Source of the DNA: a virus
IMG/VR virus record: IMGVR_UViG_3300017917_001562
Coordinates: 1-64,000 of that record
Direction: 5' to 3' (one strand)
DNA: 64,000 bases
A program made the position numbers and the translations under genes. The notes beneath the pieces were generated by a model. The model did no database searches and was not told the origin of the DNA. It was given only the letters and a program-made list of their open reading frames with translations. Of this stretch, positions 12,401 through 57,001 are shown one piece after another (the stretch's first letter is position 1; the number at the start of each line of letters is the position of its first letter).

Positions 12401-15400
12401 AACAGAACAAATTAAAAATCCTACAAATAACTCTTACGATTTATTCGGATATAGTTTGAAGATTGATAGCACTAGTACTATACTAGCAGTTGGCGGCCCA
12501 ACAGCTAGAACATTAGTTTCAACTACCTTTGATGTTTATGCAACACTTCTAACAAACGCAGATACATTATTTGGAACTCCTTATGTAACTAATCCTCGAG
12601 GATTGGTCAGTGAAGAACCTACAACTTTTGACGGCGCATCAACTAAGTTTGTTGATAAGATTAAGAGTGGCGCAGTTTGGATGTTGAATTATCTGCCAGA
12701 TAGCAGACAAGAAATTGCATACCCTGGCAAGTTTGCTTATGTTCAACAGTTAAACCCAAATAGTTTAAGCGTGGCTTTAACACCTAATGTTTCTTTTGGC
12801 GTTAGTGTTGATATTAGTAATTACGAAATGTTAGTAGGTGCATCCACAGACAGCTTGTTTGCACGAGATGGCGGCATTGTTTATAAGTTCAGTGATACTG
12901 AAAGATTAGGCGGCTGGGATATAATTAGATCCTACGATGATAAAGTTGATATTGATGGTATCATTAAAGGTTATATTTACAACAGCGACACTCAAATTAT
13001 TTTAGATAACATGGATTACATTGATCCTGTTAAAGGTAAAATTTTAGGTCAAGCAGAACAAGAAATTACTTACAAAGTAGATTACGATCCTGCTACTTAT
13101 AATAACAGTTCAACAGCATCATTGAAAACTAGTTCTACACTGTACTGGGGACAGCAGCAAGTTGGCCAAGTGTGGTGGGATTTAAGTACTGTAAGATACA
13201 TTGAATATGAACAAGATAGTATCAAATATAGAACTACAAACTGGGGGCGTGCTTTCCCTGAAAGTAGTATTGATGTATATGAATGGGTTAAGAGTTTATA
13301 CCCACCAAGTCAGTATGTTGCTACTGGTGGTAATGGTATTCCTAAGTATGTAAATGATTCTGCTTATGTAACAGAAAGTTATGTAGATCCTGTTACTAAC
13401 ATTCCGGTAGTATATTATTATTATTGGGTACAAAATAAAACATCTACTCCTATAGATGTACCTAATAGAAATATTCCAATTACTGTAATTGCAGATTATA
13501 TAAGAGATCCAAAAAATTCTGGTATCAAGTATTTTGCAGCTATTAAAGATAATGCATTGGCATTATATAATGTTAATACTGATACAGTAGGAGATAGTGT
13601 AGTATTCCATTTAGATTATGCTAAACAAATTAACAGCAGCATCATTCACAGCGAATATGCATTGCTAAGTGAAAATGCAGCCAATAGCGATGCTATTCCT
13701 CCAGTCATTTATACAAAACTAGTAGATAGTGTATCTGGAATTGACGATATTGGCAATGTAGTTCCAGACCCAACTTTACCTTTAGCTAAACGATATGGCA
13801 TAGAGTTTAGACCTCGTCAAAGCATGTATATTGATAGAAATGCCGCGGTAGAGCAAATGGTTACATTTGTAAATAATGTTTTCAAGACTGTTACATTTGC
13901 ACAAGGGTTTGATTTAACAACATTAAGTGCAGCTGAACCGTTGCCTCCCGCTGATAGTGGTTACTACGATATAAGTGTTAATACCATTAGTGAATTGAGC
14001 TATGTTGATATTGCTAGTAAGCCAGTTGGCTATAAAGTGCTAGTTATTAGCAACAGTGATATCGACAATTTATGGACAATTTATGTTAAAGACACAGAAG
14101 TAATTATTTGGGAACCTAATACTGATTATATAAGAGGACAAATCGTTTCTTATTTAGATACAGCATATACAGTAACTGAAGATTTTACTAGTGGTGCAAC
14201 ATTTACTACAACATATTTACAAGCTTATACCATTACAAATACTTGGTTCTTAACGCAAGTTCAAACTTATAAAACAACTGATTATTGGACTACTGTTGAC
14301 TGGTACGCATCGTACTACGATCAAACAAAACAACCTGCGTTTACATTTAATACAACAGCGGATATGATTAATACCAGATTTAAAACTGGTGATATTGTTA
14401 AGATTCTGAACAATGGTCAAGGTAAGTGGATGTTGTTACAAATTTTTGCCAATACAACTGTAATGGTAGGTTTGGAGGATGGTACGATTGAACTTAATAG
14501 CAGTTTATACGATACTACAACAAACGGCATGGGATTTGGTAACGACAATTTTGATACAAAACGATTTGATCAAAACCCAAGCATTGAACTTAGAAAAATA
14601 GTTGATGCATTAAAAACTGAACTGTTTATTAATCAATACAGTCATGAATTTGTTAATTTATTCTTTGCCTTAATAAGATATGTTCTCGAAGAACAAAAAT
14701 CTGTTGACTGGGTATTTAAAACTAGTTTTATTGATGTATTACATAAAATTAGAGGATTATCACAACCTCAAATCTATTACAAAGAAAACCAATCTTACTT
14801 TCAACAATATATCGAAGAAGTTAAACCATTCCACTCTACTATTAGAGAGTATGTAAGTGATTATCTAGGGTCAGACAATTATAATGGTTATACAACAGAC
14901 TTTGATGTTCCTGCTTACTTCGACCCTGTATTGCAAGTATACAGAAGTCCAAGTGGAGAGTATGCTCAAGATGTTACAGCATTGCAGCAACCACAATACG
15001 CAGACTATGTTAATAACAATTGGTACGAAATAGCAGACATTGTTATAGCCGATGGCGGCAGTGGATATACTGTTGCACCTACTGTTATTGTAACTGGTAG
15101 TACTATAGGTGATAACGCCGTGGCTAGAGCTGTTATTAGTAACGGTCAAATTGTTCAAGTGCAAGTATTATATCCAGGAAGTTATTACACAACTCAACCA
15201 ACAATTACTTTAAGTAATAGTAACGGCGCTGGTGCCCGACTTTACGCAAGATTAAGTAACACAACTATTCGTAAGGTCAAAACGACAATGACTTACGATA
15301 GAATTACATATTCTACTACAGTTATCGAATGGACTCCAAATACAGCATATACAGCAGGCTCTATTATCACTTATAATAATGTTGCTTATGTTGTCAACAG

Positions 15401-44666: not shown

Positions 44667-44963
44667 TTAGCTTAAATTGTTTTCCCAAGTATTCAATTTG
44701 TCCAAAATCAGCGCAAAATGACTGGCTTCGCCGGGAATTTCAAAAGCCACACACTGTTGCATAGCGATGTGTTTATTTTCTGGATTTTCAACATAAGCAT
44801 CTCCAGCAAAAAATCTTCCGTCGCAGTTTTCATTGACCCAGTCTGTAATTTTTTTAACATTGCATCTGAGATCAAATTGAACTTTAGTAAAATGTGGCGG
44901 GCAATGATCTAGCTGTCTAAGCCCAAACACATTTAAAGGATTAACTTCACCGTACTTTAACAT
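44667..44963 (-). CDS. Hypothetical protein (possibly distant array-family fold)
   Basis: 98 aa; W..EN..GRF..VAFE.PGEASHFAL pattern. Confidence 0.65.
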   Translation of the reverse strand: MLKYGEVNPLNVFGLRQLDHCPPHFTKVQFDLRCNVKKITDWVNENCDGRFFAGDAYVENPENKHIAMQQCVAFEIPGEASHFALILDKLNTWENNLS

Positions 44964-45057
44964 ATTTGATTTTATTCTTAAGTTGTTGCATATACCATTT
45001 TACATAGGCCCAACGCTCGGGACCAAGTTTCAAAAATTTTTTAATATCAAATTTCAT
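44947..45057 (-). CDS. 36-aa hypothetical peptide (not in ORF track)
   Basis: MKFDIKKFLKLGPERWAYVKWYMQQLKNKIKYVKVR; bridges the gap, overlapping both neighbours. Confidence 0.4.
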   Translation of the reverse strand: MKFDIKKFLKLGPERWAYVKWYMQQLKNKIKYVKVR

Positions 45058-45517
45058 CTTGTTTCTTGCAAAGTTCGCAAACAGTTAAAAATTGTTCGTA
45101 GGCATTACGAACTGCGGGATGAGTCATCAGCTTATCTGCTTCTTGTTCTAACGCCTTAATACCAGCTTCGGCAATATCACGGATGCTGTTGTAATGTACA
45201 TAACGACCTCGTTCGCCCATTACTTTCTTAAAGTGTTCCCATGCGTCATATTGTTCGTTAGTTAGTACTCTATTATTTTCTTCATCACGCTTCATGTCTG
45301 AAGCATCACCTATTGCCTTACACATTTTATCAGCTGCAACACGACCTGCGGCAATCATGGCTGCATAGTTTGGATTAATGTTGTAGAAGGTGCTTTGCCC
45401 ACCCGGATAACTCACGATCAAATGTGTACCTTTTGGAAGGGCATCCATTAGTGTTTGATCATATTCTGAAACAGGCTTATACCGTCGACCTACTTTTTCA
45501 TAGAATATCTTCTTCAT
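45047..45517 (-). CDS. Hypothetical protein
   Basis: 156-aa ORF in operon. Confidence 0.75.
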   Translation of the reverse strand: MKKIFYEKVGRRYKPVSEYDQTLMDALPKGTHLIVSYPGGQSTFYNINPNYAAMIAAGRVAADKMCKAIGDASDMKRDEENNRVLTNEQYDAWEHFKKVMGERGRYVHYNSIRDIAEAGIKALEQEADKLMTHPAVRNAYEQFLTVCELCKKQDEI

Positions 45518-45794
45518 TGTCTTTACCGTTGCTGTGAGTGTTACGATGGTTGTCTATGTCTTGAAACAGTTTCTTTTCTTGGGCTGTTGGTTCTTTAAAT
45601 GTTTTTCTGGGATTACTACACATTACACATTTAGGATCTCCACAGTTCATAGCGTGGTGTTTGGCAAATCTGTGTCCTTGATGTTGATGTTCAGGTGCAC
45701 CATGCGACTTGGCAATTTTTTGTTGTTTATGAATAGCAGTTTCTTCTTGATGTAGTCGCTTGCTGTGTTTGAACTTGTCGTTGGGATCACTCAT
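45498..45794 (-). CDS. His/Cys-rich hypothetical protein
   Basis: 98 aa; HH..NCG...C..C.NPR; AAGGA SD and consensus promoter upstream. Confidence 0.75.
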   Translation of the reverse strand: MSDPNDKFKHSKRLHQEETAIHKQQKIAKSHGAPEHQHQGHRFAKHHAMNCGDPKCVMCSNPRKTFKEPTAQEKKLFQDIDNHRNTHSNGKDNEEDIL

Positions 45795-45811: not shown

Positions 45812-45840
45812 ATTATATAGCCAAAACGGTTTTATGTCAA
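45812..45840 (-). promoter_or_regulatory. Consensus sigma70 promoter
   Basis: TTGACA(45840-45835)-17 nt-TATAAT(45817-45812) on the minus strand. Confidence 0.8.
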
Positions 45841-45842
45841 TG

Positions 45843-46130
45843 TTACATCCATTTTAATCTAAACCAATTGGCATCTTCTGGAGATTCAAAAGCTATTTTT
45901 ACGCCTTGAATTTTATATTCACTTTGGCAATTTTCTTTTAACCAATCTCTTTTTTGTTGACATAAATTATCTGTGACCATATGATTGGTAACATGAACAA
46001 CATATCCGGACCCAAGAGCATTGTTTACCAATGTCCACCCCGATACTTCTACCCAAACACTAAAGTCTATTTCGTATTGAACCTGCTCAGCTAGTTGATT
46101 TAGAATGTGTTCTTGTATATTATTGTTCAT
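45843..46130 (-). CDS. Array-family small protein (ends WFRLKWM)
   Basis: WLKENC..IAFESPEDANWFRLKWM; start MNNN at 46130. Confidence 0.7.
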   Translation of the reverse strand: MNNNIQEHILNQLAEQVQYEIDFSVWVEVSGWTLVNNALGSGYVVHVTNHMVTDNLCQQKRDWLKENCQSEYKIQGVKIAFESPEDANWFRLKWM

Positions 46131-46132
46131 TG

Positions 46133-46354
46133 TTAACTCCATCTAAGACAAAAAGCTGTCAGTGTCGGTTTATCGGGCAACACCACAGTCATACCTTGGA
46201 CCTTACTTTTATTTTGTTTACACCACACTTGTAGATCATCGTAGTGTATATTCCAGTATGCTATGTCTGACAGCACAATCAACAATTCGCCGCCTGTTAC
46301 TAGCGTATCAGGAATAATGAATCTTCGTCGGTGACCGTTGTCAAGTAAACTCAT
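46133..46354 (-). CDS. Array-family small protein (ends FCLRWS)
   Basis: ATGA-overlap start at 46354; WCKQN..TLTAFCLRWS. Confidence 0.7.
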   Translation of the reverse strand: MSLLDNGHRRRFIIPDTLVTGGELLIVLSDIAYWNIHYDDLQVWCKQNKSKVQGMTVVLPDKPTLTAFCLRWS

Positions 46355-46710
46355 CTTACTAAGTTTAACATGGTTTGATATTGTTGCCAAAGATCTTGAA
46401 GTCCGGGATGTTGATGTCTAAGCCTAGTTTCTTCTTCTTGCTTATATACAATTTCTTGAATATCTCGCTTTAGGTCTACTGCATGTTGCTTTTCTTCCAA
46501 CCATTGATCGTGTTCCATTAAAGCACGAAAACGATCTTCAGGCATGTGAATTTCTACACAAGTAAGATCCTCATATGGATTATTGTTATAAATGTTTGGA
46601 TCACTGGCCCATATTTTATAATCAACTCGTCTTACTCGTCTATGCATTTTTGTACTAGGCACTACATAAGCATCATATTTGTAACAAAACTCTGTAAAAT
46701 CTTTTGTCAT
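46351..46710 (-). CDS. Hypothetical protein (non-family member inside the array)
   Basis: 119 aa, no LRW end. Confidence 0.7.
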   Translation of the reverse strand: MTKDFTEFCYKYDAYVVPSTKMHRRVRRVDYKIWASDPNIYNNNPYEDLTCVEIHMPEDRFRALMEHDQWLEEKQHAVDLKRDIQEIVYKQEEETRLRHQHPGLQDLWQQYQTMLNLVR

Positions 46711-46711
46711 T

Positions 46712-46996
46712 TTAACTCCATTTTAATAACCATAAAGCTATATCGTCTTTATGTGTAAATCCCCACCATTCTTGTTGATTATGAAAGTCGGAACTGTAAG
46801 ACAGAATTTGGCCGCGGCAATGCAAATTACACCAAGTCCAGTATTCGTTGGAAAATTTAACAGGTTTAACACAAACAAACCATTTACTGGGCTTGTGCGG
46901 TTTAACTTGTTCTGGCACCCAAAGTCCACTATCATCGTCACCAAGTCCTGGGCGAATATCGTTCCAAAATTCTTTGAACTGCTTTCGATTTATCAT
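46712..46996 (-). CDS. Array-family small protein (ends WLLKWS)
   Basis: Start MINRK at the junction repeat; WCNLHC..WGFTHKDDIALWLLKWS. Confidence 0.7.
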   Translation of the reverse strand: MINRKQFKEFWNDIRPGLGDDDSGLWVPEQVKPHKPSKWFVCVKPVKFSNEYWTWCNLHCRGQILSYSSDFHNQQEWWGFTHKDDIALWLLKWS

Positions 46997-47205
46997 GACC
47001 ACTTCAACAATGTTAACAAGGCTTTTTTCTCGTCTGCGAAATGCCAAGTAGTACCATAAGTGGGGCTCCTTAGATTCATATCATATGTACGCCACCAGTC
47101 TTGTTTAAACTCACCTACATAAGTTTCTAACCACTCATTAAATGATACATCTGGTACTAATGAACGATGAAGACCCTTGAGTTGACTTTGATGTATTTTA
47201 TTCAT
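46993..47205 (-). CDS. Array-family small protein (ends LLKWS)
   Basis: WLETYVG..WHFADEKKALLTLLKWS. Confidence 0.7.
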   Translation of the reverse strand: MNKIHQSQLKGLHRSLVPDVSFNEWLETYVGEFKQDWWRTYDMNLRSPTYGTTWHFADEKKALLTLLKWS

Positions 47206-47207
47206 AC

Positions 47208-47438
47208 TTACGCCCATCGCAGTTTCCATATTACATATAGTTCTGGAGTCAAGTATAAAGCAGTATTACTGTCGGGATCATCTCGCATTGGTCGCCATAA
47301 ATCAGGATCTTGCACTCGGATCCACTCAAACATACCCTCGGGGGTCCTAAATCCTTCAAAGCTTGGATCATCAAAACAATATGTTTTGTATCCGTGTGTA
47401 AAAAGTTCGTAACGACCGTTGCGTGGCAAATGACTCAT
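47208..47438 (-). CDS. Array-family small protein (ends WKLRWA)
   Basis: ATGA-overlap start MSHLP. Confidence 0.7.
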   Translation of the reverse strand: MSHLPRNGRYELFTHGYKTYCFDDPSFEGFRTPEGMFEWIRVQDPDLWRPMRDDPDSNTALYLTPELYVIWKLRWA

Positions 47439-47647
47439 CGGTTTCCTTTTAAAATAAACCACACAGCATCCTGCTCACGCTCAAACCACACTGTTCGACT
47501 ACCGTAGTAGAGATAGAACTTACCAGGCGAATCCATTAACTGCAATTCACGCTTGAGTTGGGCATAGTTCCAATTTAGGTTGATTGTGCGTAGAACAGGA
47601 TGCCAGTGCTGTTGCCGAACCTTTTTATCTTTGTTCCAATATTTCAT
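47435..47647 (-). CDS. Array-family small protein (ends WFILKGNR)
   Basis: VWFEREQDAVWFILK motif. Confidence 0.7.
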   Translation of the reverse strand: MKYWNKDKKVRQQHWHPVLRTINLNWNYAQLKRELQLMDSPGKFYLYYGSRTVWFEREQDAVWFILKGNR

Positions 47648-47871
47648 GACCACCTTAATATAAACCAACTCATATCTTTACGAGCATCCGGATAATCTAA
47701 AAAATAAAAATTAATTAAATCGTGTGTAATAGTATTACCATCACTGTGATATTGATTAGTAATGTAATGTGGACAGTTTTTCTTTGCCCATTGAATAGCA
47801 CTATACAAATCAAGTTTACTACGGTCTACTGTTATGTAGTTATCAGTAATCTTCATATGCCAGTTGTCCAT
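47644..47871 (-). CDS. Array-family small protein (ends WFILRWS)
   Basis: WAKKNC..FYF..KDMSWFILRWS. Confidence 0.7.
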   Translation of the reverse strand: MDNWHMKITDNYITVDRSKLDLYSAIQWAKKNCPHYITNQYHSDGNTITHDLINFYFLDYPDARKDMSWFILRWS

Positions 47872-48083
47872 CAACTCCACCTTAACAAAAATGCTGTATA
47901 ATCTTCTTCATGCTCAAATACCGCAGTAACAAACTTGTTGTCTTTGTCCTCGACCATTTTGCAGCCAAACTCCTGTAACCATTTTTTTCGGCTTTCTTCT
48001 AGTCCCAACGACTGAACACCAAGTGTTTCACGCCACGCACGACGAAACATTGAATGATGCTTTTTTAAATCTACTTCAATCAT
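47871..48083 (-). CDS. Array-family small protein (ends FLLRWS)
   Basis: WLQEFG..VFEHEEDYTAFLLRWS. Confidence 0.7.
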   Translation of the reverse strand: MIEVDLKKHHSMFRRAWRETLGVQSLGLEESRKKWLQEFGCKMVEDKDNKFVTAVFEHEEDYTAFLLRWS

Positions 48084-48732
48084 GACCACCTCAATGCTAG
48101 CATTGTAGCATGATTTGCATATTTTCGTCTAACAAATTGATAAATAAAAATGCGAGTCGCGATGCGTCAACATCCACCCGCCCTAACAGTTGAAAAGGAA
48201 CTATCAGCATGAATATTTATTCCCCGGCACGACCCCCATCTGGGTATTATGTTTACGCATATATAAGATCAAAAGATTCGAAAACAGGTAAAGCAGGGAC
48301 TCCGTATTACATTGGTAAAGGCAAGGGCAATCGAGCCACTCGACGTCACGGAAAAAACCCTATTCCAGATTTTGATTTCATAGCAATATGTGAAGAAAAT
48401 TTAACTGAAATTGGTGCATTAGCGATTGAACGATTCCTTATACGTGTTTGGGGGAGAAAAGATATCGGTACCGGAATTTTGTTAAACAGAACAGACGGCG
48501 GGGATGGGACATCGGGTAGATCAGCAGAGTCAATCTGCACCCAAACTGCGCCACCAAGGTCTACCCATCTTGGATCATTATGATCTACAATTAAAGGGCC
48601 CACAGGCCACCTTACTTTGATAACAACACCAGGAACAAACCTCCACCAAAGTTTTTGCCAAATGTTTAATCCGCAAGGCAAATATCTGCCAGACGGCAAT
48701 TGAAATAAACTTTTAATTTCCCACTTAGCCAT
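48080..48732 (-). pseudogene. Array-family gene disrupted by an inverted endonuclease fragment
   Basis: N-terminal part [15 protein letters not shown] (48732 to about 48519); orphan out-of-frame tail VRRKYANHATMLALRWS* (48133-48080) carrying a perfect junction repeat. Confidence 0.65.
48140..48520 (+). mobile_element. Inverted insertion: late-promoter motif, leader and truncated GIY-YIG homing endonuclease (ORF 48209..48583)
   Basis: YYVYAY..PYYIGKG.GNR..E..LI...[12 protein letters not shown] catalytic domain; after TSGR the ORF reads the antisense of the disrupted gene; ATAAATA at 48140, AAGGA SD. Confidence 0.75.
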
Positions 48733-49133
48733 TATGAATATTTCAATGCTATCATTACGGCATCTTGCTCATTGTTAGTTGCTACAAACACTTTATCCTC
48801 ACCGCCTAGTTCGTTTACTGTCCATTCCCAATCAGTAGAAGGCTCACACATAACACGATGAAACTCCCAAACAGCATTTTCACCTAAAGCACGAGCAGGC
48901 CAAAAATAATGTTTTGTATCTTCTCGCACGGTCCACCCAAACGGTTGTTCTAAGTTAAAAAACTTGTTAGGATCAACGATAACAATATGTTTAAAATTTC
49001 TAAAAATATCTTTGATACGAGTAGCACGGACATTAACGGTTTGTTCATACCATGCCTTATACTCACGCTCTGCTTTTGTATAACCAGTTGTGCGAGTAAG
49101 ATACCAATCTTTGATATTGTCGAATAAAATCAT
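48732..49133 (-). CDS. Array-family protein (ends IALKYS)
   Basis: 133 aa; FVATNNEQDAVMIALKYS. Confidence 0.7.
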   Translation of the reverse strand: MILFDNIKDWYLTRTTGYTKAEREYKAWYEQTVNVRATRIKDIFRNFKHIVIVDPNKFFNLEQPFGWTVREDTKHYFWPARALGENAVWEFHRVMCEPSTDWEWTVNELGGEDKVFVATNNEQDAVMIALKYS

Positions 49134-49136
49134 GGT

Positions 49137-49376
49137 TTATTCTGCTAATACTTCAAACAGTTCAGCATACTGTGTTTCGGGTTCATCAACGAATCCAGTA
49201 TAGACCCATACTCTGCGACAATAAACTTTTTTAAGCCACACCCAACGGTTGTTAATAGTTTTATGCGGCAACAACACAAATGTTTCAACCCAGTCGTGTT
49301 CTACCGCGGTTATGTCGCCTATGTTTGGGATAAACATTGCTCCTCTAACTATTTCTTTAAATAGGGAAAAACTCAT
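49137..49376 (-). CDS. Hypothetical protein (non-family member inside the array)
   Basis: F.LLP.KT....WVWLK..Y motif, similar to 60864..61121. Confidence 0.6.
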   Translation of the reverse strand: MSFSLFKEIVRGAMFIPNIGDITAVEHDWVETFVLLPHKTINNRWVWLKKVYCRRVWVYTGFVDEPETQYAELFEVLAE

Positions 49377-49594
49377 GCCCACCTTAACGCTAATAAAATG
49401 TAAATTTTTTCATGAACATCAAATACATTATAGTTGATATGCCATTTTTCGTCAATGTTTTGAAACCATTGTTTATCTTCCTGCTCACAGAAAGATGTTC
49501 TTAACCAAATACTAACTTCTTTTTTACAAGATATAGTATACCAAGATTCATTATTAACTATAGCCTTAGTCCTTACTTTGAAGTTAGATTTCAT
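49373..49594 (-). CDS. Array-family small protein (ends LALRWA)
   Basis: Junction-coupled start MKSNF. Confidence 0.7.
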   Translation of the reverse strand: MKSNFKVRTKAIVNNESWYTISCKKEVSIWLRTSFCEQEDKQWFQNIDEKWHINYNVFDVHEKIYILLALRWA

Positions 49595-49839
49595 ACCCAC
49601 CTCAACGCAAACATAGTATATTTTTTCTCATCTACCACTGCAACCTGCACAACTTCGTATCCGTGCCTACCATATATATCTTGTTTAGGACATAGATCTA
49701 ATCTGAGCCCGGCTGTTTGTTCAATATGATACTTAAACCCAAGCATACGGTCCTCTCCAGAACTGGGCCAATCTGGGTCATATTCCATATAACATTTGTT
49801 TAGCAAACGATTTACGGATTTTGTATCTATAAATCTCAT
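49591..49839 (-). CDS. Array-family small protein (ends FALRWV)
   Basis: VVDEKKYTMFALRWV. Confidence 0.7.
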   Translation of the reverse strand: MRFIDTKSVNRLLNKCYMEYDPDWPSSGEDRMLGFKYHIEQTAGLRLDLCPKQDIYGRHGYEVVQVAVVDEKKYTMFALRWV

Positions 49840-50048
49840 GAGCTCCACCTCAATGCAAACATAGTTGCATCCTTGCTATTGCGGAAGTAATAATCCACAC
49901 CCTTCATTGAGGGCACTCGATTCCAGCGACCTTTAAACGGGCCCATGTTTTCGCCTAGCCATTCCTCAATCTTGTAATGCCCGGCGTGATCCATGGGCAT
50001 AGAGATAGGAATCTTTGCTGGCCAAATTTCTTTCTTTAGTTGTCTCAT
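49836..50048 (-). CDS. Array-family small protein (ends FALRWSS)
   Basis: WLGENMG..YYFRNSKDATMFALRWSS. Confidence 0.7.
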   Translation of the reverse strand: MRQLKKEIWPAKIPISMPMDHAGHYKIEEWLGENMGPFKGRWNRVPSMKGVDYYFRNSKDATMFALRWSS

Positions 50049-50335
50049 GACCACCTCAACTCTAAGAATGTTACCATTTCCGGAGGAACTAAGAATACAC
50101 TTTCAAACCATAGGTACCATGTGAACTTTTCTCGTGAGAAATGTTCGTTCATCCACACAACCTCTGGACCTAATACATCTACGCAAACATAATCTTCATA
50201 TCCCATGGGAGGGGCACGGCCAGTATCAACACGCGGCGGAATCAGGAATGTTGATTCATATTCGGCCAACCATTTAGCGTGAGCGGCTAGTTCGTTATCC
50301 GGTATCAGAGCAACACTTTGGAAATTTACTTTCAC
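50045..50335 (-). CDS. Array-family small protein (ends FLELRWS)
   Basis: GTG start at the junction; WMNEHF..MVTFLELRWS. Confidence 0.7.
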   Translation of the reverse strand: MKVNFQSVALIPDNELAAHAKWLAEYESTFLIPPRVDTGRAPPMGYEDYVCVDVLGPEVVWMNEHFSREKFTWYLWFESVFLVPPEMVTFLELRWS

Positions 50336-50565
50336 GACCACCTCAACATAAACCAAGTATACGCTTGTTCATCATAAAAGTCAATATACCTATCACCGTA
50401 ACCGCTTAACGGATTTATGGGTTTGGCTATCCAAAAGTTTGCCGACCAGTCCATGAGAGCATGATTGATTTCTTCCTCGCCAAAACTATCTGGTAAAAAG
50501 TTATACCACCATCTTGGGATTTCAGATGGATGGCGATCTTCTTCAAATATCTTTATTCTAATCAT
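50332..50565 (-). CDS. Array-family small protein (ends FMLRWS)
   Basis: IDFYDEQAYTWFMLRWS. Confidence 0.7.
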   Translation of the reverse strand: MIRIKIFEEDRHPSEIPRWWYNFLPDSFGEEEINHALMDWSANFWIAKPINPLSGYGDRYIDFYDEQAYTWFMLRWS

Positions 50566-50771
50566 GACCACCTCAACACAAACATCATATAATCATCTAC
50601 ACGGCGAAATTCAAATACACCTTCACTAACATAACGCCAGTTCTGTTCCTTGAATCGTCCTCTACACCATTCCATCGCAGGCAACCAGCCCCAGTGCTCA
50701 TACTCCTTGTGTGCAGGTTGAGGCACACTTGCAATAATCCAACTGTTGATAGGATTTCTTGGCAATTTCAT
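50562..50771 (-). CDS. Array-family small protein (ends FVLRWS)
   Basis: EWCRGRF..FEFRRVDDYMMFVLRWS. Confidence 0.7.
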   Translation of the reverse strand: MKLPRNPINSWIIASVPQPAHKEYEHWGWLPAMEWCRGRFKEQNWRYVSEGVFEFRRVDDYMMFVLRWS

Positions 50772-51022
50772 GACCACCTCAGAATAAACATACTAGCGTC
50801 TTTTTCTTTTTCAAACATCCAGATGCTACCTCGACCTTGATGGTTACCTTGTAAGTTTTCTCTGCACCATTTTTTGATTTCGTATATCTGCGTCTCGTGC
50901 ATCCTTGCGGGCCACTTTATCTCAACCTTTGTATAGCCTAGTTTAATCATCATGTCGCACATGATTTCCCAGTCTGTTTCTTCCTGGAGGGTTTTTGCAA
51001 GGTCTTGTTTTATTATTGTCAT
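50768..51022 (-). CDS. Array-family small protein (ends FILRWS)
   Basis: WCRENL..WMFEKEKDASMFILRWS. Confidence 0.7.
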   Translation of the reverse strand: MTIIKQDLAKTLQEETDWEIMCDMMIKLGYTKVEIKWPARMHETQIYEIKKWCRENLQGNHQGRGSIWMFEKEKDASMFILRWS

Positions 51023-51240
51023 GACCACCTCAACATAAACAAAGTAGCATGTGCGGGATCAGAAAACCACATTACATATCCAGAGCCGGGTTCTAGTCGC
51101 CAGTAGTGTTCGCTAGCTGGTTTTCCATATTGACAGTTATTAGGACTACCAAAAGTTTTTAAACACCATGCCCACCAAACAGGCAGGCCTTGTTGATTAT
51201 ATACATGTCTATGTTTCATGGGTACAATTACAATATTCAT
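51019..51240 (-). CDS. Array-family small protein (ends FMLRWS)
   Basis: WCLKTFG..MWFSDPAHATLFMLRWS. Confidence 0.7.
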   Translation of the reverse strand: MNIVIVPMKHRHVYNQQGLPVWWAWCLKTFGSPNNCQYGKPASEHYWRLEPGSGYVMWFSDPAHATLFMLRWS

Positions 51241-51482
51241 GACCACCTCAACGCAAATAACATAGCCTTTTTTTCGTCTACGATAGAGATCATAGTATCA
51301 CCTAACCTTGCGCTATACACTCCCCACTCATCGCCCGCTTCAGGCTCAATATCAATGCCGTCAGGCCAACTATTTTTTAACCAACGGCCACCGGGTCCTA
51401 CATTGTTGTATAACCAATGTTCTAACTCTACAAACTGTATCCGGTGTTTGCTCATAATGGTAGTAGCATCAAAGTTAATCAT
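51237..51482 (-). CDS. Array-family small protein (ends FALRWS)
   Basis: WLYNNVG..IVDEKKAMLFALRWS. Confidence 0.7.
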   Translation of the reverse strand: MINFDATTIMSKHRIQFVELEHWLYNNVGPGGRWLKNSWPDGIDIEPEAGDEWGVYSARLGDTMISIVDEKKAMLFALRWS

Positions 51483-51727
51483 GACCACCTCAGCGTTGTA
51501 AGCATCATGTCTTGCTCAAATTCAAAATAAAATCGGCCGGTTGATTCACAAAAACTATATCGGCCATGGCTGGGATAATTGTTACACCAGTTTACAATAG
51601 CTGCTTCTTTAACGAGCCATTCTAAAGTACCAGTATCGTAACTATCGAACTCTTCCTTATTCCAAAAGTTAGTAGAGTCTACAACATATTTGAAATTTTC
51701 TATGTCTAAGTTGGCTATTTTCTTCAC
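51479..51727 (-). CDS. Array-family small protein (ends TTLRWS)
   Basis: GTG start; WCNNY..FYFEFEQDMMLTTLRWS. Confidence 0.7.
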   Translation of the reverse strand: MKKIANLDIENFKYVVDSTNFWNKEEFDSYDTGTLEWLVKEAAIVNWCNNYPSHGRYSFCESTGRFYFEFEQDMMLTTLRWS

Positions 51728-51936
51728 ACCCACCTCAACAGTGCAAACATTCTATCTTTTTCATTTGTAATATACCACAAGTCAACACCATTAAGTGTGC
51801 CCTGGTATTCTGTTTCTATAGAATTTTTTTCACACCACTTATGAAAGTTTATTCTTTGCTGTGAGCTAACAGTAAAGCCCCGCGGATCACCTACTAATTT
51901 TACTCTGCCCTTTTCTGCAAAAACTTTAGTGGTCAT
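51724..51936 (-). CDS. Array-family small protein (ends FALLRWV)
   Basis: WCEKN..WYITNEKDRMFALLRWV. Confidence 0.7.
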   Translation of the reverse strand: MTTKVFAEKGRVKLVGDPRGFTVSSQQRINFHKWCEKNSIETEYQGTLNGVDLWYITNEKDRMFALLRWV

Positions 51937-52151
51937 GCCCACCTCAGTGCAAACCACTCTTTGTTTTCTCTAACTTGAAATATGTATCCGTTAGAGCCTG
52001 AACTTAGAAGAAAGTATTCTACTTTGTTTTCGCGCATCCAACCGTAGATGTCAAGCCACTCCTGAAATGTGCGAACAAGGTAAGTAGGGTAACCTGCCCA
52101 ACCTGGGTAGCTAGTAGATTCGACTTTCATATTCATTGTGTTATCAATCAT
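51933..52151 (-). CDS. Array-family small protein (ends FALRWA)
   Basis: WMRENKV..EWFALRWA; start could be a downstream ATG. Confidence 0.7.
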   Translation of the reverse strand: MIDNTMNMKVESTSYPGWAGYPTYLVRTFQEWLDIYGWMRENKVEYFLLSSGSNGYIFQVRENKEWFALRWA

Positions 52152-52482
52152 GAAAATCGTAATCGTAGCAGTGTCTAATTTCGTGTCCTAAATTTGAAGT
52201 GCTGGTGTTGGTACCTGTAATTACAGTACACTGATCACCTCGCCAAACAGCACAACCAACAATTCTATTTTTACCAAATCTACCATTGGTGCTTTTATCA
52301 CAGATTTGTTGCAGCTCTTGGTCAGACACTTGACGCCAAGTAATAGTTCTTACTCTTGTTTGTGATTTAGCAGTACTGATGTGTTCGGCGTTGTATTCCC
52401 ATGCCTTAACGGGGTTGACAGGTTGAGCACTACAACCAGATACTGCTGCAACAATCGCAAAAACTAAAGACATTTTTTTCAT
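52144..52482 (-). CDS. Predicted lipoprotein with HExxH motif
   Basis: MKKMSLVFAIVAAVSG-C lipobox; LGHEIRHC. Confidence 0.7.
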   Translation of the reverse strand: MKKMSLVFAIVAAVSGCSAQPVNPVKAWEYNAEHISTAKSQTRVRTITWRQVSDQELQQICDKSTNGRFGKNRIVGCAVWRGDQCTVITGTNTSTSNLGHEIRHCYDYDFHD

Positions 52483-52483
52483 G

Positions 52484-52708
52484 TTAATTCCACCTTAACA
52501 AAAACATTGTCAAATCTTTTTGATTTTTAAATTCAAACATATCGTAGGCAATCCTGTAACCACAATGATTTTCCCTGCACCATTCTACCATTTCAGCTAT
52601 AGGATAGCCTAAATAATGACCTTCTTGATCAAGTATAAATTCATCCACCGAAATTTTTACAGCAAGCCTAAGCCTTGGATCTGGTTCAATGGCGTAGGCT
52701 TTGCTCAT
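52484..52708 (-). CDS. Array-family small protein (ends FLLRWN), first cassette
   Basis: TAATG overlap with the vWA gene; WCRENH..FEFKNQKDLTMFLLRWN. Confidence 0.7.
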   Translation of the reverse strand: MSKAYAIEPDPRLRLAVKISVDEFILDQEGHYLGYPIAEMVEWCRENHCGYRIAYDMFEFKNQKDLTMFLLRWN

Positions 52709-53985
52709 TATGCTTTGGCCAATTCCTTGGCTCGTTCATAAATTGCCCAAACACCAAAGGGAGGTTCTGCTTGCTCGTTGCCTTTGATAATGAATACAGT
52801 ATCGCAGTATTCGCTGTCACCCCACTCACCAAAAGGCATACCGTCAGTGAACATGATAAACTTCTTAGGTTGAATATCATTTTCCTTCATGTATTCCCAA
52901 TTAGCCATAAAGTCAGTACCACCACCACCTTGGGGCTCATAGGTAAGAATGTCCTCTAGTGATTCTGAACTGTAAACTTGGTGATTATACACTGCGGTGT
53001 CAAAACTCCACACTTGAATCTTGTACTCGTCATAGGCTTCCATAATGCCTTTGATCTCAGCCATAAAAGCCTTGATGTCTTCCTCGCCAATAGAACCCGA
53101 AGTGTCAATGGCAATACAAACATCAATCTGTTGACCCGGGATCATACCAGGCATAACAGCATCCAAGTGCCAGCTACGGCGTGAAGGGCGCAACCAAGTA
53201 AAGTCGTTTTTAACGGTGCTTTGGATTTGTTGTTCCAACAGCTCACGCCAGTTAACTACAGGCCTAGTCAAGTCTTTGATCAGACGCTTAACACCTGACG
53301 GCAAATTGCTGGCGCCTGTGGCCTGTGCGGCCTGTAGCAGTGCTTCGCGGATTTCGTCTTTGATGGCCTGTCGTTCTTCTTTGCTGAGACGGGGACGACC
53401 TTTGCCTTCTTTCTCGTCACCATCTTCGTCGCTACTGCCGTTGTCACCATCACCGTCCAAGTGCTCGTCTAACAGTTGATCCATCAAATCGCTGATGTCA
53501 ATTTTTTCTGCATTTTCATAAAGGTCGTCGTAGACTTCTTCAGCACTCCAACCTTTGTATTTGACATCATACAGGCAAGGGGTAATTTTGTCACCAATCC
53601 GTTGCTCAATCAAATCACTGTTAACACAATAGTCAGCGGCACAATTAAACAAACGGCGATCGCGGTCGCCATTACGACCCATATGGTCATAGACATTGTG
53701 CAGAACTTCGTGGCCAAACAAGAACTCAAGTTCTTTGGGTTTCAGTTTATTAACGAACTCAGTGTTGTAATAAAATTTACGACCATCGGTTGCAGCAGTA
53801 CCAAGCCAACTGTCTGCATTAACCAATTGCAGTCTGGTAGCAAGGTTACCAAAGAATGGTGCCTTAAGCAAGAGACCGATACGAGCAGTAGTCAATTTTT
53901 CACGCACTGCACGATCCAAAGCAGGATCGGTATTGTCAGTGAGACGACCTGCGATGTCTTTTTGTTTACTGTCTGATGTAGCCAT
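52708..53985 (-). CDS. Metallopeptidase-like (HExxH) plus vWA domain protein (DUF2201-type)
   Basis: TAATDG, HEVLH, N.AADY.VN; MIDAS DTSGS, GGGTDF, FTDG. Confidence 0.85.
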   Translation of the reverse strand: MATSDSKQKDIAGRLTDNTDPALDRAVREKLTTARIGLLLKAPFFGNLATRLQLVNADSWLGTAATDGRKFYYNTEFVNKLKPKELEFLFGHEVLHNVYDHMGRNGDRDRRLFNCAADYCVNSDLIEQRIGDKITPCLYDVKYKGWSAEEVYDDLYENAEKIDISDLMDQLLDEHLDGDGDNGSSDEDGDEKEGKGRPRLSKEERQAIKDEIREALLQAAQATGASNLPSGVKRLIKDLTRPVVNWRELLEQQIQSTVKNDFTWLRPSRRSWHLDAVMPGMIPGQQIDVCIAIDTSGSIGEEDIKAFMAEIKGIMEAYDEYKIQVWSFDTAVYNHQVYSSESLEDILTYEPQGGGGTDFMANWEYMKENDIQPKKFIMFTDGMPFGEWGDSEYCDTVFIIKGNEQAEPPFGVWAIYERAKELAKA

Positions 53986-54010
53986 TTATCTGCTCCTTGT
54001 TAATGTATAT

Positions 54011-54039
54011 ATTATAACACACTTGCGAATTTTTGTCAT
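54011..54039 (-). promoter_or_regulatory. sigma70-type promoter upstream of the vWA gene and array
   Basis: ATGACA-17 nt (AAAATTCGCAAGTGTGT)-TATAAT, followed by AAGGAG SD. Confidence 0.7.
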
Positions 54040-54052
54040 TAATACCAAAGTA

Positions 54053-54346
54053 TTACAACCATTTAAGTGTAAACAGTTCTAGTTCTTGATTTGTTTTAAG
54101 ATAAATTAATGGAGTATCGTATTTAATATCCTCTAATCTATAAGACCAAGATTGGTTCCTAGTAAATTTTGCATGACTTAAATGAAGGTTGAGTTGGACA
54201 CCCATACCCCATATTTCATTGCACCAATGACACCATTCTACAAATTTAGGAATTCTAGAGTCAAAGGGTTCGTGCAGTTCAATCCTGTATGCAAAATGCC
54301 CATATCCTCCATGACGGCGATCTAATTTTACAACCTTGGCGGGCAT
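54053..54346 (-). CDS. Array-family small protein between the AAA and vWA genes (ends FTLKWL)
   Basis: WCNEIWG..IYLKTNQELELFTLKWL. Confidence 0.7.
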   Translation of the reverse strand: MPAKVVKLDRRHGGYGHFAYRIELHEPFDSRIPKFVEWCHWCNEIWGMGVQLNLHLSHAKFTRNQSWSYRLEDIKYDTPLIYLKTNQELELFTLKWL

Positions 54347-54365
54347 GATTGTTACTAGTAATTGG

Positions 54366-54409
54366 GGACTTACGGGAGAAAGGAGTTGGAAAGCCCTGCC
54401 CCGTAGTCC
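54366..54409 (-). other. GC-rich stem-loop directly after the AAA ATPase stop
   Basis: GGAC-TACGGG...CCCGTA-A-GTCC inverted repeat; no U-tract. Confidence 0.5.
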
Positions 54410-55519
54410 TTACTTGCTGTTGGCGGCTACAATGTATTTGCCAAATCGCTTATGGAACTCGTCGAAATGTTTCAACTTGCCAGGAATGAAAGGCAGATTG
54501 TAGGTAGTCAGTGCAACACGAGCACCCATAACAGTCAATTCGGTAGTGAAATTGTCCATCATGTAACGGAAGAAGAAATCTGCCATACTGTTAAATTTCT
54601 CGTCAGGCTTGCCGTTATTTTTTAGCACATGATCCTGAAGTTCATAGCAGAGGTTCACAGTTAGTGAGTACATGGCTGAAATTTCTTTGACCTTAAGATC
54701 AGTGACTTTGCCGTCAAGAATGTCAATAGGCTTAGGCAACTGACCTGCAACCTTGCGGTGCGCCATAAACTTAACTGCAACACCTTCGCCCACAGCACCT
54801 GAAATCAAGTCAGTAAGTTCGCTGTCAGTGCAGTCATTGTCCTCCAACAGTTCACTGACAAAAGTCCACGAACGAGGAGTAGCGAACGCACGGCTTGAAC
54901 TACGGGGGTCAAAGTCGTAAAGGTCTTGTTTAGCAAAACCAATATAACCAATCACATCTGAACTGATGCGGTTAATGGTAGCCCATTGCTCCCACGATTC
55001 GTGATCAACTCGCATCTCCAAGTGAACGAAGCGGTTAGCCAACGGAGCAGGCATACGATAAGTAACGCCTTTATCAGTTTCACGGTTACCTGCGGCAATC
55101 ACAACCACATTGTCAGGCAGTGTATACTTGCCAATACGGCGGTTCAAAACCAGCTGATAAGCTGCGGCCTGGATGCTGGGTGCAGCACTGTTCATTTCAT
55201 CAAGGAACAAAACAACCACAGGATACTGTTTGGCCAGTTCTTCACTGGGCAAGTCGATTGGGGGAGCCCAATCCATCAAACCATTGTCTTTGTTGTAATA
55301 AGGAATACCACGCAGGTCAGTGGGTTCCATCTGTGCCAAACGAAGGTCAATCATAAGACCGCCCATTTCTTCAGCAATACTAGCAACCAGTTCGGACTTG
55401 CCGATGCCTGGAGGACCCCACAGGAACAGGGGTCGTTTTTTCTTAAAACACTTGGTAATGGCACGACGAGCGGTCAGTGCGGTTACAGTGCGATTTTCAG
55501 TAATTGAGTCTTTCGACAT
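54410..55519 (-). CDS. MoxR-like AAA+ ATPase
   Basis: Walker A GPPGIGKS, DLRG.P, Walker B LFLDEMN, AAGN, LANRF, TPRSW. Confidence 0.88.
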   Translation of the reverse strand: MSKDSITENRTVTALTARRAITKCFKKKRPLFLWGPPGIGKSELVASIAEEMGGLMIDLRLAQMEPTDLRGIPYYNKDNGLMDWAPPIDLPSEELAKQYPVVVLFLDEMNSAAPSIQAAAYQLVLNRRIGKYTLPDNVVVIAAGNRETDKGVTYRMPAPLANRFVHLEMRVDHESWEQWATINRISSDVIGYIGFAKQDLYDFDPRSSSRAFATPRSWTFVSELLEDNDCTDSELTDLISGAVGEGVAVKFMAHRKVAGQLPKPIDILDGKVTDLKVKEISAMYSLTVNLCYELQDHVLKNNGKPDEKFNSMADFFFRYMMDNFTTELTVMGARVALTTYNLPFIPGKLKHFDEFHKRFGKYIVAANSK

Positions 55520-55546
55520 CGTCTTCTCCTTTGCTTTAAAAAGTAT

Positions 55547-55575
55547 ATTATACCTAATCTGCGAATTATTGTCTG
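55547..55575 (-). promoter_or_regulatory. sigma70-type promoter upstream of the AAA ATPase
   Basis: CAGACA-17 nt (ATAATTCGCAGATTAGG)-TATAAT; AAGGAG SD. Confidence 0.6.
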
Positions 55576-55581
55576 TAGTTA

Positions 55582-55854
55582 TTATACCACAGTCAACATA
55601 TTAGCAGGAACTCGCCACAGACCTGCCACAGTGCGAACAGTGACATATTTCTGTGCAATTTTGACCACTGTACCAGTGTAATCACGGCCTTGTTTGGAAT
55701 TGTGAAAGTTAACATTGTCGCCCAACATCAAACTGGCTTTGGTTCGCTTGGTCAGCTGAGCCCTAGCATATTTTAAAGCTTCTGTAATTTTACTAAGGTC
55801 TTCGTTGGTAAAATTACCGGCCACCAATTCACGGACGATATCGTTTGTGTTCAT
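55582..55854 (-). CDS. Hypothetical protein (possible SH3/KOW-like C-terminus)
   Basis: 90 aa; LGDNVNF..GTVVKI..KYVTV..WRVP; AGGAG SD. Confidence 0.7.
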   Translation of the reverse strand: MNTNDIVRELVAGNFTNEDLSKITEALKYARAQLTKRTKASLMLGDNVNFHNSKQGRDYTGTVVKIAQKYVTVRTVAGLWRVPANMLTVV

Positions 55855-55890
55855 GTTAGTTCAACTCCTGTTTTGTTACTGTATGCCATT

Positions 55891-55919
55891 ATTATAGCAA
55901 AATTGGGAATTTCGGACAA
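55891..55919 (-). promoter_or_regulatory. Early sigma70-type promoter (copy 1 of duplicated module)
   Basis: TTGTCC-17 nt-TATAAT with TGn extension. Confidence 0.75.
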
Positions 55920-55933
55920 GTACTACTTGAGTA

Positions 55934-56359
55934 TTACTTTTCTAGGGCGTAGGGTTTGTCCCAACGGCCAATGTTGACATCAATATACCAACCCACATCA
56001 AAATAGTCAGTCATTGCATCGCTATTGTCGTGATTGCCGTTATTCATTGCAGGAATAACTTCCTTCAAAAAGTTAAGGGCCCGGCCACTGAAATGCTCTT
56101 TGTACCAATAAGGATTAACATCCAGGCTACGGTTCTTGCGGATGTAGTCAATTTGATCTTGACCCATCTTTTTACCAGACAGACCATTGGTGTCAGTTTC
56201 AATGAAATTTTCAATGAAGTCAATGCGACCCTGCTTGATGTTCAGAACCAAGGTGCTGTGATTGCGAACTGCAATACTGGCCTTGACACCATACTTCTTG
56301 CAGATTGCTTTGATGGCAGGTGCCAGCATAGCCTTCTTTTCTTGCGACATATAAGCCAT
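55934..56359 (-). CDS. Hypothetical early protein
   Basis: 141 aa, AGGAG SD; DNSDAMTDYFDVGWY motif. Confidence 0.75.
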   Translation of the reverse strand: MAYMSQEKKAMLAPAIKAICKKYGVKASIAVRNHSTLVLNIKQGRIDFIENFIETDTNGLSGKKMGQDQIDYIRKNRSLDVNPYWYKEHFSGRALNFLKEVIPAMNNGNHDNSDAMTDYFDVGWYIDVNIGRWDKPYALEK

Positions 56360-56629: not shown

Positions 56630-57001
56630 TTAGGTATTACTTTCTAAGTTGTCTAAGTAAGTGGCAAGGTCTCCGCCCATTAATTGCAACCAACTAGCAT
56701 CCTGCTCATCTAAGACAATAAATTTTGCAGTACGGCTCCAATAGTAATATGGACCAGGAAACAATCTTTCAAGTTGCAGTAAGTTCTTGTTGGTCAAGGG
56801 CTTGGGCAATTCAAAAGAGAAAATTTCTAATTTTAATTCTTTGACTACAAACTGATAACCAGTCATGCTTAATCTAATGCTGGCATCGTCAGTATGGTTG
56901 TGCCACATAAATTTCAAATCAGCTGTGGGCCTGCCAACTTGATGTGCAAATATTTTTGTAAGTTGGCTTTGTGTAAATCGCTTAAGGGAAGATTTGATCA
57001 C
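56630..57001 (-). CDS. Hypothetical protein
   Basis: 123-aa ORF in operon. Confidence 0.7.
   Translation of the reverse strand: MIKSSLKRFTQSQLTKIFAHQVGRPTADLKFMWHNHTDDASIRLSMTGYQFVVKELKLEIFSFELPKPLTNKNLLQLERLFPGPYYYWSRTAKFIVLDEQDASWLQLMGGDLATYLDNLESNT

Follow-up and report, generated by a model that had tools for sequence, protein, structure and literature searches.

Introduction

A MoxR-type AAA+ ATPase accompanied by a vWA partner with an N-terminal metallopeptidase domain is known from group 2.2 jumbo phages, where Iyer et al. (2021, PMC7824862) suggest a part in virion assembly for the pair, exemplified by proteins of Agrobacterium phage Atu_ph07. In this work, we describe a viral locus in which such a pair of genes is directly followed by a tandem array of small paralogous genes, here called cassettes. 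The locus lies in the IMG/VR virus record IMGVR_UViG_3300017917_001562, and the window analysed comprises the first 64 kb (64,000 nucleotides) of this 108,581-base record, which is estimated to be 31% complete. We conclude that the array is probably an expansion of paralogues in a variable slot of the phage genome, translated by coupling and evolving by the gain and loss of cassettes. Its adjacency to the ATPase and vWA genes reflects the position of the slot, and an obligate functional unit is not implied.

The closest described systems share some features of this locus and lack others. The pair found in group 2.2 jumbo phages has the same gene order, ATPase and then vWA, and the same domain fusion as the window; in the accessible text of the report, no linked small-protein family or array is mentioned, whereas the window carries one (PMC7824862). 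In RavA-ViaA of Escherichia coli and other cellular MoxR-vWA pairs, an ATPase of the MoxR/AAA_5 kind is likewise encoded beside a vWA gene, but ViaA is without a metallopeptidase domain and, as far as the accessible parts of these reports go, no paralogue array is linked to it, while the window has both (PMC3893208, PMC10585395). The hyperplastic regions of T4-type phages consist of variable small open reading frames (ORFs) lying between conserved core blocks, an arrangement also seen here. According to the portions of the literature at hand, short conserved inter-ORF sequences in these regions, the mobile promoter-stem-loop cassettes (PeSLs), are possible shuffling sites, and the repeated cassette junction of the window is comparable in this respect (PMC4122927, PMC2839356). 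However, PeSLs are described there as combining a promoter with a stem-loop terminator, whereas the junctions in the window are coding, have overlaps of 1-4 nucleotides (nt), and contain neither intergenic space nor a terminator. Moreover, hyperplastic ORFs are reported to be unrelated to one another, while the cassettes are paralogues of one family.

The Array and Its Dual-Coding Junctions

The array is located on the minus strand at 45843..52708 and contains 22 family members of about 70-133 amino acids, delimited by ORFs, alignment, and a profile hidden Markov model (HMM), with C-termini of the form F-x-L-[RK]-W-x. In the whole 108.6-kb record, the family HMM recognizes 23 members (E from 2e-18 to 4e-6), all on the minus strand and all within 45843-54346. 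The first-pass annotation of this DNA, made from the letters alone, had given the order, strand, and coordinates of the genes correctly. The genes are, in order, the AAA+ ATPase gene (55519-54410), a single family member (54346-54053), the HExxH/vWA gene (53985-52708), a TAATG overlap, and the array down to 45843. The array thus adjoins the MoxR/vWA pair in the window phage itself. The stop codon of the vWA gene overlaps the start codon of the first cassette as TAATG (52708), most cassettes are joined to one another by ATGA or GTGA start/stop overlaps, and the array ends at the stop codon at 45843.

The usual cassette ends with TTG AGG TGG TCA TGA, read as L-R-W-S-stop. Within this tail, GAGGTGG makes a strong ribosome-binding sequence, and the TGA stop codon is overlapped by the ATG of the cassette that follows. 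The LRWS tail doubles as the Shine-Dalgarno sequence and start codon of that cassette, and it neatly illustrates how the end of a protein can be, at the same time, the translation start signal of the following gene.

Such an arrangement raises the question of whether the shared C-terminal motif is a by-product of the nucleotide junction, that is, of a ribosome-binding site with an overlapping start codon, so that the ORFs would form no true protein family. Codon usage at the junction is extreme, as this explanation would have it: the motif arginine is encoded by AGG in 15 of 17 cassettes, compared with 28 of the 397 arginine codons (7%) of long genes, and 16 of 23 cassettes are terminated by TGA, compared with 4 of 18 long genes. 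The motif is nevertheless retained where no cassette follows, namely at 45843 (LKWM, followed by a promoter-like site) and at 54053 (LKWL), and two-domain relatives such as P0023 and P0117 keep an internal copy of it, which argues that the tail serves protein and message alike. Residues outside the junction, W52, F70, and F79, are 90-100% conserved among 147 sequences, and the predicted fold of the cassette is confident. Motif retention, internal copies, conservation, and fold together contradict the by-product explanation, to which we give hardly any credence.

Not every gene of the array belongs to the family. Non-members are interspersed at 52482..52144, 49376..49137, and 46710..46351, together with a plus-strand gene of the GIY-YIG type. 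The first of these (52144..52482, minus strand) lies between the first cassette and the second; the small protein predicted by its translation combines a lipoprotein-type signal peptide (…VSGC) with the motif HEIRH at the C-terminal side. Its orthologues in two related loci (L005, L006) are 54% identical, while Pfam gave no match and PHROG matches were weak. The plus-strand gene, at 48209..48583, encodes a predicted GIY-YIG-type homing endonuclease (phrog_15526, 7.7e-16). It splits a cassette-like gene, whose 5' part runs from 48732 and whose 3' remnant, at 48132..48080, ends in ALRWS. When the endonuclease gene is left out, the rejoined frame is open, codes for 88 amino acids ending in ALRWS, and resembles orthologues in L005-L007.

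The array also varies between strains, and contigs from other sequencing runs differ from the window at the scale of whole cassettes. A 386-nt gap (48132->48519) removes the endonuclease gene in the DNA runs X2 and X7, and in one X7 contig, the segment 49388-51479 is swapped for about 433 other letters. The family member between the ATPase and vWA genes, referred to below as B, shows presence/absence polymorphism, with a clean 295-nt gap (54063-54359) in one contig of the RNA library X21 and in the two DNA runs X2 and X7. The repeated junction could supply the homology for unequal crossing-over, by which cassettes would be added, removed, or swapped. Contigs of the RNA run X21 are found on the ATPase, vWA, B, and endonuclease genes and at 44.5-45.7 kb, and almost none fall on the cassettes; because these contigs represent relatives placed at 85% likeness, they are silent on cassette expression.

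Promoter-Like Sites and Expression of the Array

The initial annotation had placed promoters ahead of both genes of the pair and had noted no consensus minus-strand promoter inside the array. The two sites do exist on the minus strand: one upstream of the vWA gene at 54011..54039 (ATGACA-17-TATAAT with TG, 11/12 match) and the other at 55547..55575 (10/12). A perfect sigma-70 consensus, TTGACA-17-TATAAT (12/12), is located on the same strand at 45812..45840, after the last cassette and before the gene at 45794..45498. The scan as a whole returned 37 sites where 36.5 are expected by chance, so all of these are pattern matches and no more, and their reading as promoters is weakened. The claim about the interior of the array did not survive at the level of the consensus, as minus-strand matches occur there at 49455-49427 (11/12) and at 50384-50356 (10/12). 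No convincing terminator was found within the array by the promoter/terminator scan, and no terminator-like site at the cassette junctions. The dual-coding junctions suggest that translation would be coupled from one cassette to the next along the array, on transcripts initiated further upstream, probably at the vWA gene or ahead of it.

The Cassette Family

A family profile was built from the cassettes of the array and searched against 1.84 billion representatives, which yielded 1223 family clusters at E<=1e-3 and zero at E<=1e-10. The sampled relatives are small proteins with the shared terminal motif, some of them of two domains; the exception is P0040, a long repetitive protein that is apparently unrelated to the family. 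No Pfam or PHROG model covers any member in the window, and among 34 relatives from elsewhere, none was matched by Pfam or PHROG except for the capsid-like pieces discussed below. Look-ups in the Atlas returned viral hypothetical clusters only, and a tblastn search with P0001 against cultured phages gave no match at E<=0.01. Judged by these profile searches, the cassettes appear to form a large and widespread phage protein family without a Pfam or PHROG name, so that this work defines a family of proteins of giant phages that is very large and seems to be unnamed.

The family motif is W…F-x-F…DA-x-x-F-x-L-[RK]-W. Across the same 147 sequences, variation is absent at W52 and L81 and nearly absent at F70, F79, and W83. 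In the AlphaFold2 model of a cassette (mean predicted local distance difference test score, pLDDT, 86.7), an N-terminal helix is followed by a beta-alpha-beta-beta-alpha core. This core of about 45 residues is C-terminal to a variable part, and in the alignment, the N-termini of most members are unrelated. Fold searches stayed below noise both with Foldseek against the PDB (best E 0.36) and with VIA (Z 6.2 or less), while structure matches in BFVD were exclusively to uncharacterised phage proteins. The matches below noise, for the cassette as well as for the related protein gpX described in the next section, were generic ferredoxin-like, ACT, RRM, or secretin-N folds. The cassette proteins would most likely be diversified binders, perhaps employed in host takeover, counter-defence, or competition between phages, a role that is conjecture.

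Some relatives from elsewhere carry N-terminal pieces resembling the T4-type major capsid protein (P0005, P0007, P0014, P0019, P0102, and P0124). No Gp23 family member turned up in the 108.6-kb record, itself 31% complete, and for this reason, the capsid proteins of three relatives (G001-G003) were used for comparison; the pieces resemble the VGVQPM region of the capsid protein or, in the G001-G003 proteins, the stretch around residues 158-221. These pieces bring up the idea that cassettes are decoys or inhibitors of capsid-related processes in the host or in rival phages, in which capsid-like segments bait capsid-sensing defences or competitor assembly independently of the MoxR-vWA pair. Consistent with it are Pfam Gp23 matches in the N-termini of P0014, P0019, P0102, and P0124 (E 1.7e-5 to 9e-4; only P0124 above the cut-off), BLAST identities of 52-60% over 25 residues between P0019 or P0102 and the G001-G003 capsid proteins, and one Atlas cluster in which 13% of members bear Gp23. 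Yet in the window, the likeness is confined to the N-terminal helix of two cassettes, 51022..50768 and 46130..45843, and is weak (E 0.04-0.9 in a six-protein database), and the unrelated N-termini of most members speak against it too. We consider such a decoy function quite improbable.

The ATPase-vWA Pair

The ATPase gene (54410..55519, minus strand) encodes a protein of 369 amino acids with the Walker A motif GPPGIGKS and the Walker B motif FLDE, matched by phrog_1297 at 1e-97. Its description as a MoxR-type ATPase in the first-pass annotation is supported by Pfam scores above the cut-offs for AAA (38.1 bits, cut-off 21.2), AAA_3 (28.2, cut-off 27), and AAA_5 (28.1, cut-off 22), and its nearest solved relatives are the AAA modules of midasin (E 7e-14). 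The score for bpMoxR (PF20030), the type belonging to MoxR-vWA-beta-propeller ternary systems, was under the cut-off (18.7 bits versus 27, with 45 residues covered).

The vWA gene (52708..53985, minus strand, phrog_1314) encodes 425 amino acids in which a metallopeptidase domain (DUF2201_N, 143 bits) is fused to a vWA-like domain (DUF2201, 60.3 bits), both above their cut-offs. The expected motifs are present, HEVLH in the former and the metal ion-dependent adhesion site (MIDAS) sequence DTSGS in the latter, as had been predicted for this partner, and H92, E93, H96, D294, S296, and S298 are invariant among 36 sequences. Among the papers found on DUF2201, none treats its function.

ATPase and vWA protein are homologous to the Atu_ph07 proteins ASV44729.1 (E 1.4e-69) and ASV44728.2 (E 1.3e-93), respectively, and by sequence, the two window genes correspond to the known pair of the group 2.2 jumbo phages. 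In total, 799 phage records contain a relative of the vWA protein. In a set of 78 related viral loci anchored on the vWA gene (vWA identity 52-89%), the ATPase gene lies upstream on the same strand in 73, and four of the five misses have less than 500 nt upstream. The same order is found in phages Phosso, PA5oct, Atu_ph07, 2.275.O, and BF. The ATPase and vWA genes are thus a conserved gene pair.

Conserved Backbone and Variable Slots

The array directly follows the vWA gene in only six of the 78 vWA-anchored loci (L003-L007, L027). In the remaining loci, the genes next after vWA are homologues of those found past the array in the window, which identifies the array as something inserted or expanded in the interval from vWA to gpX. 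Two of these genes, at 45794..45498 (phrog_4499) and 45517..45047 on the minus strand, stand directly after vWA in some relatives and are present in 13 and 9 of 48 loci, respectively; in L012-L015, the homologue of the first begins 224 nt past vWA. In three other loci (L008, L016, L028), gpX begins at the vWA stop codon.

The backbone of the region reads, in order of transcription, g58131, g57269, g57001, a slot, the MoxR ATPase gene, a slot, the vWA/metallopeptidase gene, a slot, gpX, g44606, g44509, frd, and td, the numbered genes being designated by position. Backbone genes are nearly always present (g44606 in 47/48 loci, g44509 in 48/48, g58131 and g57269 each in 52/57), whereas slot genes are patchy, with each present in 6 to 23 of these loci, as illustrated by B (19/57), g45794 (13/48), and g56359 (6/57). 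With backbone genes in 46-52 of 48-57 loci, slot genes in 6-23, and the array absent from most, the region has the character of a T4-type hyperplastic region. A lineage-specific tandem expansion has probably filled one variable slot of this conserved early-gene backbone.

Two further genes of the region belong to the discussion of the family. Member B (54053..54346, minus strand) lies between the ATPase and vWA genes and encodes 97 amino acids ending in FTLKWL (family HMM E 1.8e-8; its orthologue alignment scores 96.5% against the family in hhalign). The 19 loci with positional orthologues are counted among the 57 with at least 5 kb upstream. The second gene, gpX (44667..44963, minus strand, 98 amino acids), is found in 46 of the 48 loci that extend 5 kb or more downstream of vWA. 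In hhalign, it scores 94.9% against the cassette family (E 4.4e-8; 94.1% with a rebuilt alignment), compared with 0.1-18% for six control neighbour families, and its AlphaFold2 model (pLDDT 88.1) has the same beta-alpha-beta-beta-alpha core as the cassettes. Profile comparison and model thus point to gpX as a distant homologue of the cassette domain. Its own family comprises 1479 clusters, all unnamed and from metagenomes only, and its fold searches remained below noise in VIA (Z 5.7 or less) and in BFVD (best E 0.033). In 9 of 45 distinct loci, gpX has its start codon overlapping the stop codon of vWA; the junction is TAATG in L008, L009, L069, L072, and L073, and in the window, the first cassette occupies that junction. 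The position of gpX after vWA is conserved no better than that of other backbone neighbours. The backbone gene at 56630-57001 (minus strand) also ends in a cassette-like stretch (…FIVLDEQDASWLQL…), with weak profile similarity (18%, E 0.0013).

Linkage of Arrays to the Pair in Other Phages

The first-pass annotation had suggested that the array is physically coupled to the pair and that the small proteins are interchangeable substrate adaptors or clients of it, a link that was to be looked for across phages. The linkage holds in the window and fails in most other arrays. A search anchored on the junction 14-mer gave 137 viral loci. Since single 14-mer matches are, by estimate, close to chance, only contigs with at least three HMM-confirmed members were counted; among the loci with flanks, 38 distinct contigs qualify. 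Where the sequence upstream of the array reaches 3 kb or more, vWA and ATPase genes are present in 3 of 30 contigs, and the other 27 fetched loci have neither. The commonest neighbour just upstream of arrays is a metallophosphoesterase (phrog_1649), seen in 12 of 38 loci (L081, L112, and 10 more).

Large records give a similar picture. In six of them, arrays or members are 30-192 kb from vWA: about 89 kb in G002, about 166 kb in G003, at least 30 kb in G006, about 129 kb in G007, about 50 kb in G009, and 56-73 kb for the three members of Pseudomonas phage PA5oct. Serratia phage BF and Vibrio phage 2.275.O possess the pair, and family members were undetected in them. Members close to the pair are present elsewhere. 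The array adjoins vWA in G001; G010 has three members between ATPase and vWA and two more about 120 kb off; G008 has one member 66 nt after vWA and eight members 83 kb off. Sinorhizobium phage Phosso carries 36 members genome-wide, one of them about 330 nt after vWA, and Atu_ph07 has five, two of which are 2.5-4 kb after vWA. As most arrays in related phages lie elsewhere, closeness to the pair is better understood as genome layout than as a sign of a shared machine.

Several observations weigh against reading the array simply as the content of a variable slot. In at least four lineages, members are neighbours of the pair (the window and G001; G010; G008; Phosso and Atu_ph07), which is more than would be expected if one to three clusters were placed at random in about 340 kb. 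The cassette fold is shared, by model, with gpX, a gene that overlaps the end of vWA in a fifth of the distinct loci (the 9 of 45 given above). Every large related record with the family also has the pair, so that a dependence in trans may hold. Finally, the role ascribed to the cassette proteins is conjectural, and the fold searches yielded nothing above noise. The weight of members recurring beside the pair is tempered in that insertion is limited to a few slots.

These observations bear most directly on the adaptor proposal, in which cassettes and gpX would be exchangeable adaptors or clients of the MoxR-vWA-metallopeptidase, with the core or the C-terminal helix docking to the machine, a putative binding, and the variable part selecting targets. 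The proposal gains from the distant homology of gpX, often translationally coupled to vWA, from B standing between ATPase and vWA in a third of the loci, from members directly after vWA in G008 and Phosso, and from the first cassette having taken over a TAATG junction that gpX holds in five relatives. The capsid-like fragments on some members elsewhere would also fit the virion-assembly role that the accessible text of PMC7824862 proposes for the pair. It is weakened by the 27 of 30 arrays away from the pair and the six large records with distant arrays, by the two phages with the pair and undetected members, by a gpX position conserved no better than that of its neighbours, and by the dispensability of B in natural strains. 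The residues W52, F70, F79, L81, and W83, moreover, appear to be spaced like a buried face. On balance, we hold the adaptor proposal to be doubtful.

Adaptor families of the F-box/SCF kind join a constant small domain to variable parts and have many paralogues. The cassettes share this plan of a constant domain plus a variable part, also in many paralogues, but gene linkage with the proposed machine is not kept across phages (3/30), and docking is only putative. A wider version of the adaptor proposal would unite gpX and the cassettes in a superfamily whose members are interchangeable specificity subunits of the MoxR-vWA-metallopeptidase: gpX would be constitutive, cassettes, some of them with capsid bait, would redirect the activity to phage or host proteins, and distant arrays would act in trans. 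We regard this version as unlikely. To our knowledge, no substrate or partner of the phage MoxR-vWA-peptidase pair is known. If the link to a diversifying small-protein family is genuine, it would offer a first handle on what the pair acts on. Independently of these proposals, and in line with the expansion of paralogues in a slot that we favour, the slot map around the conserved module points to genes, gpX first, that are worth testing with the pair.

The Source Phage and Other Features of the Window

The DNA runs that contain the window stretch are labelled as pond, lake, freshwater, and aquatic metagenomes, with one marine metagenome, and the relatives of the window phage are phages of 330-380 kb carrying a T4-type Gp23 capsid protein. 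The source is a giant freshwater phage. A megablast search of 52000-56000 against phages returned a 109-nt match and nothing else. The genes at 38.9-64 kb are on the minus strand and include those for thymidylate synthase, dihydrofolate reductase, an exonuclease, and radical-SAM enzymes. In another part of the window, a plus-strand block contains a single open frame of 4463 amino acids at 3420-16811.

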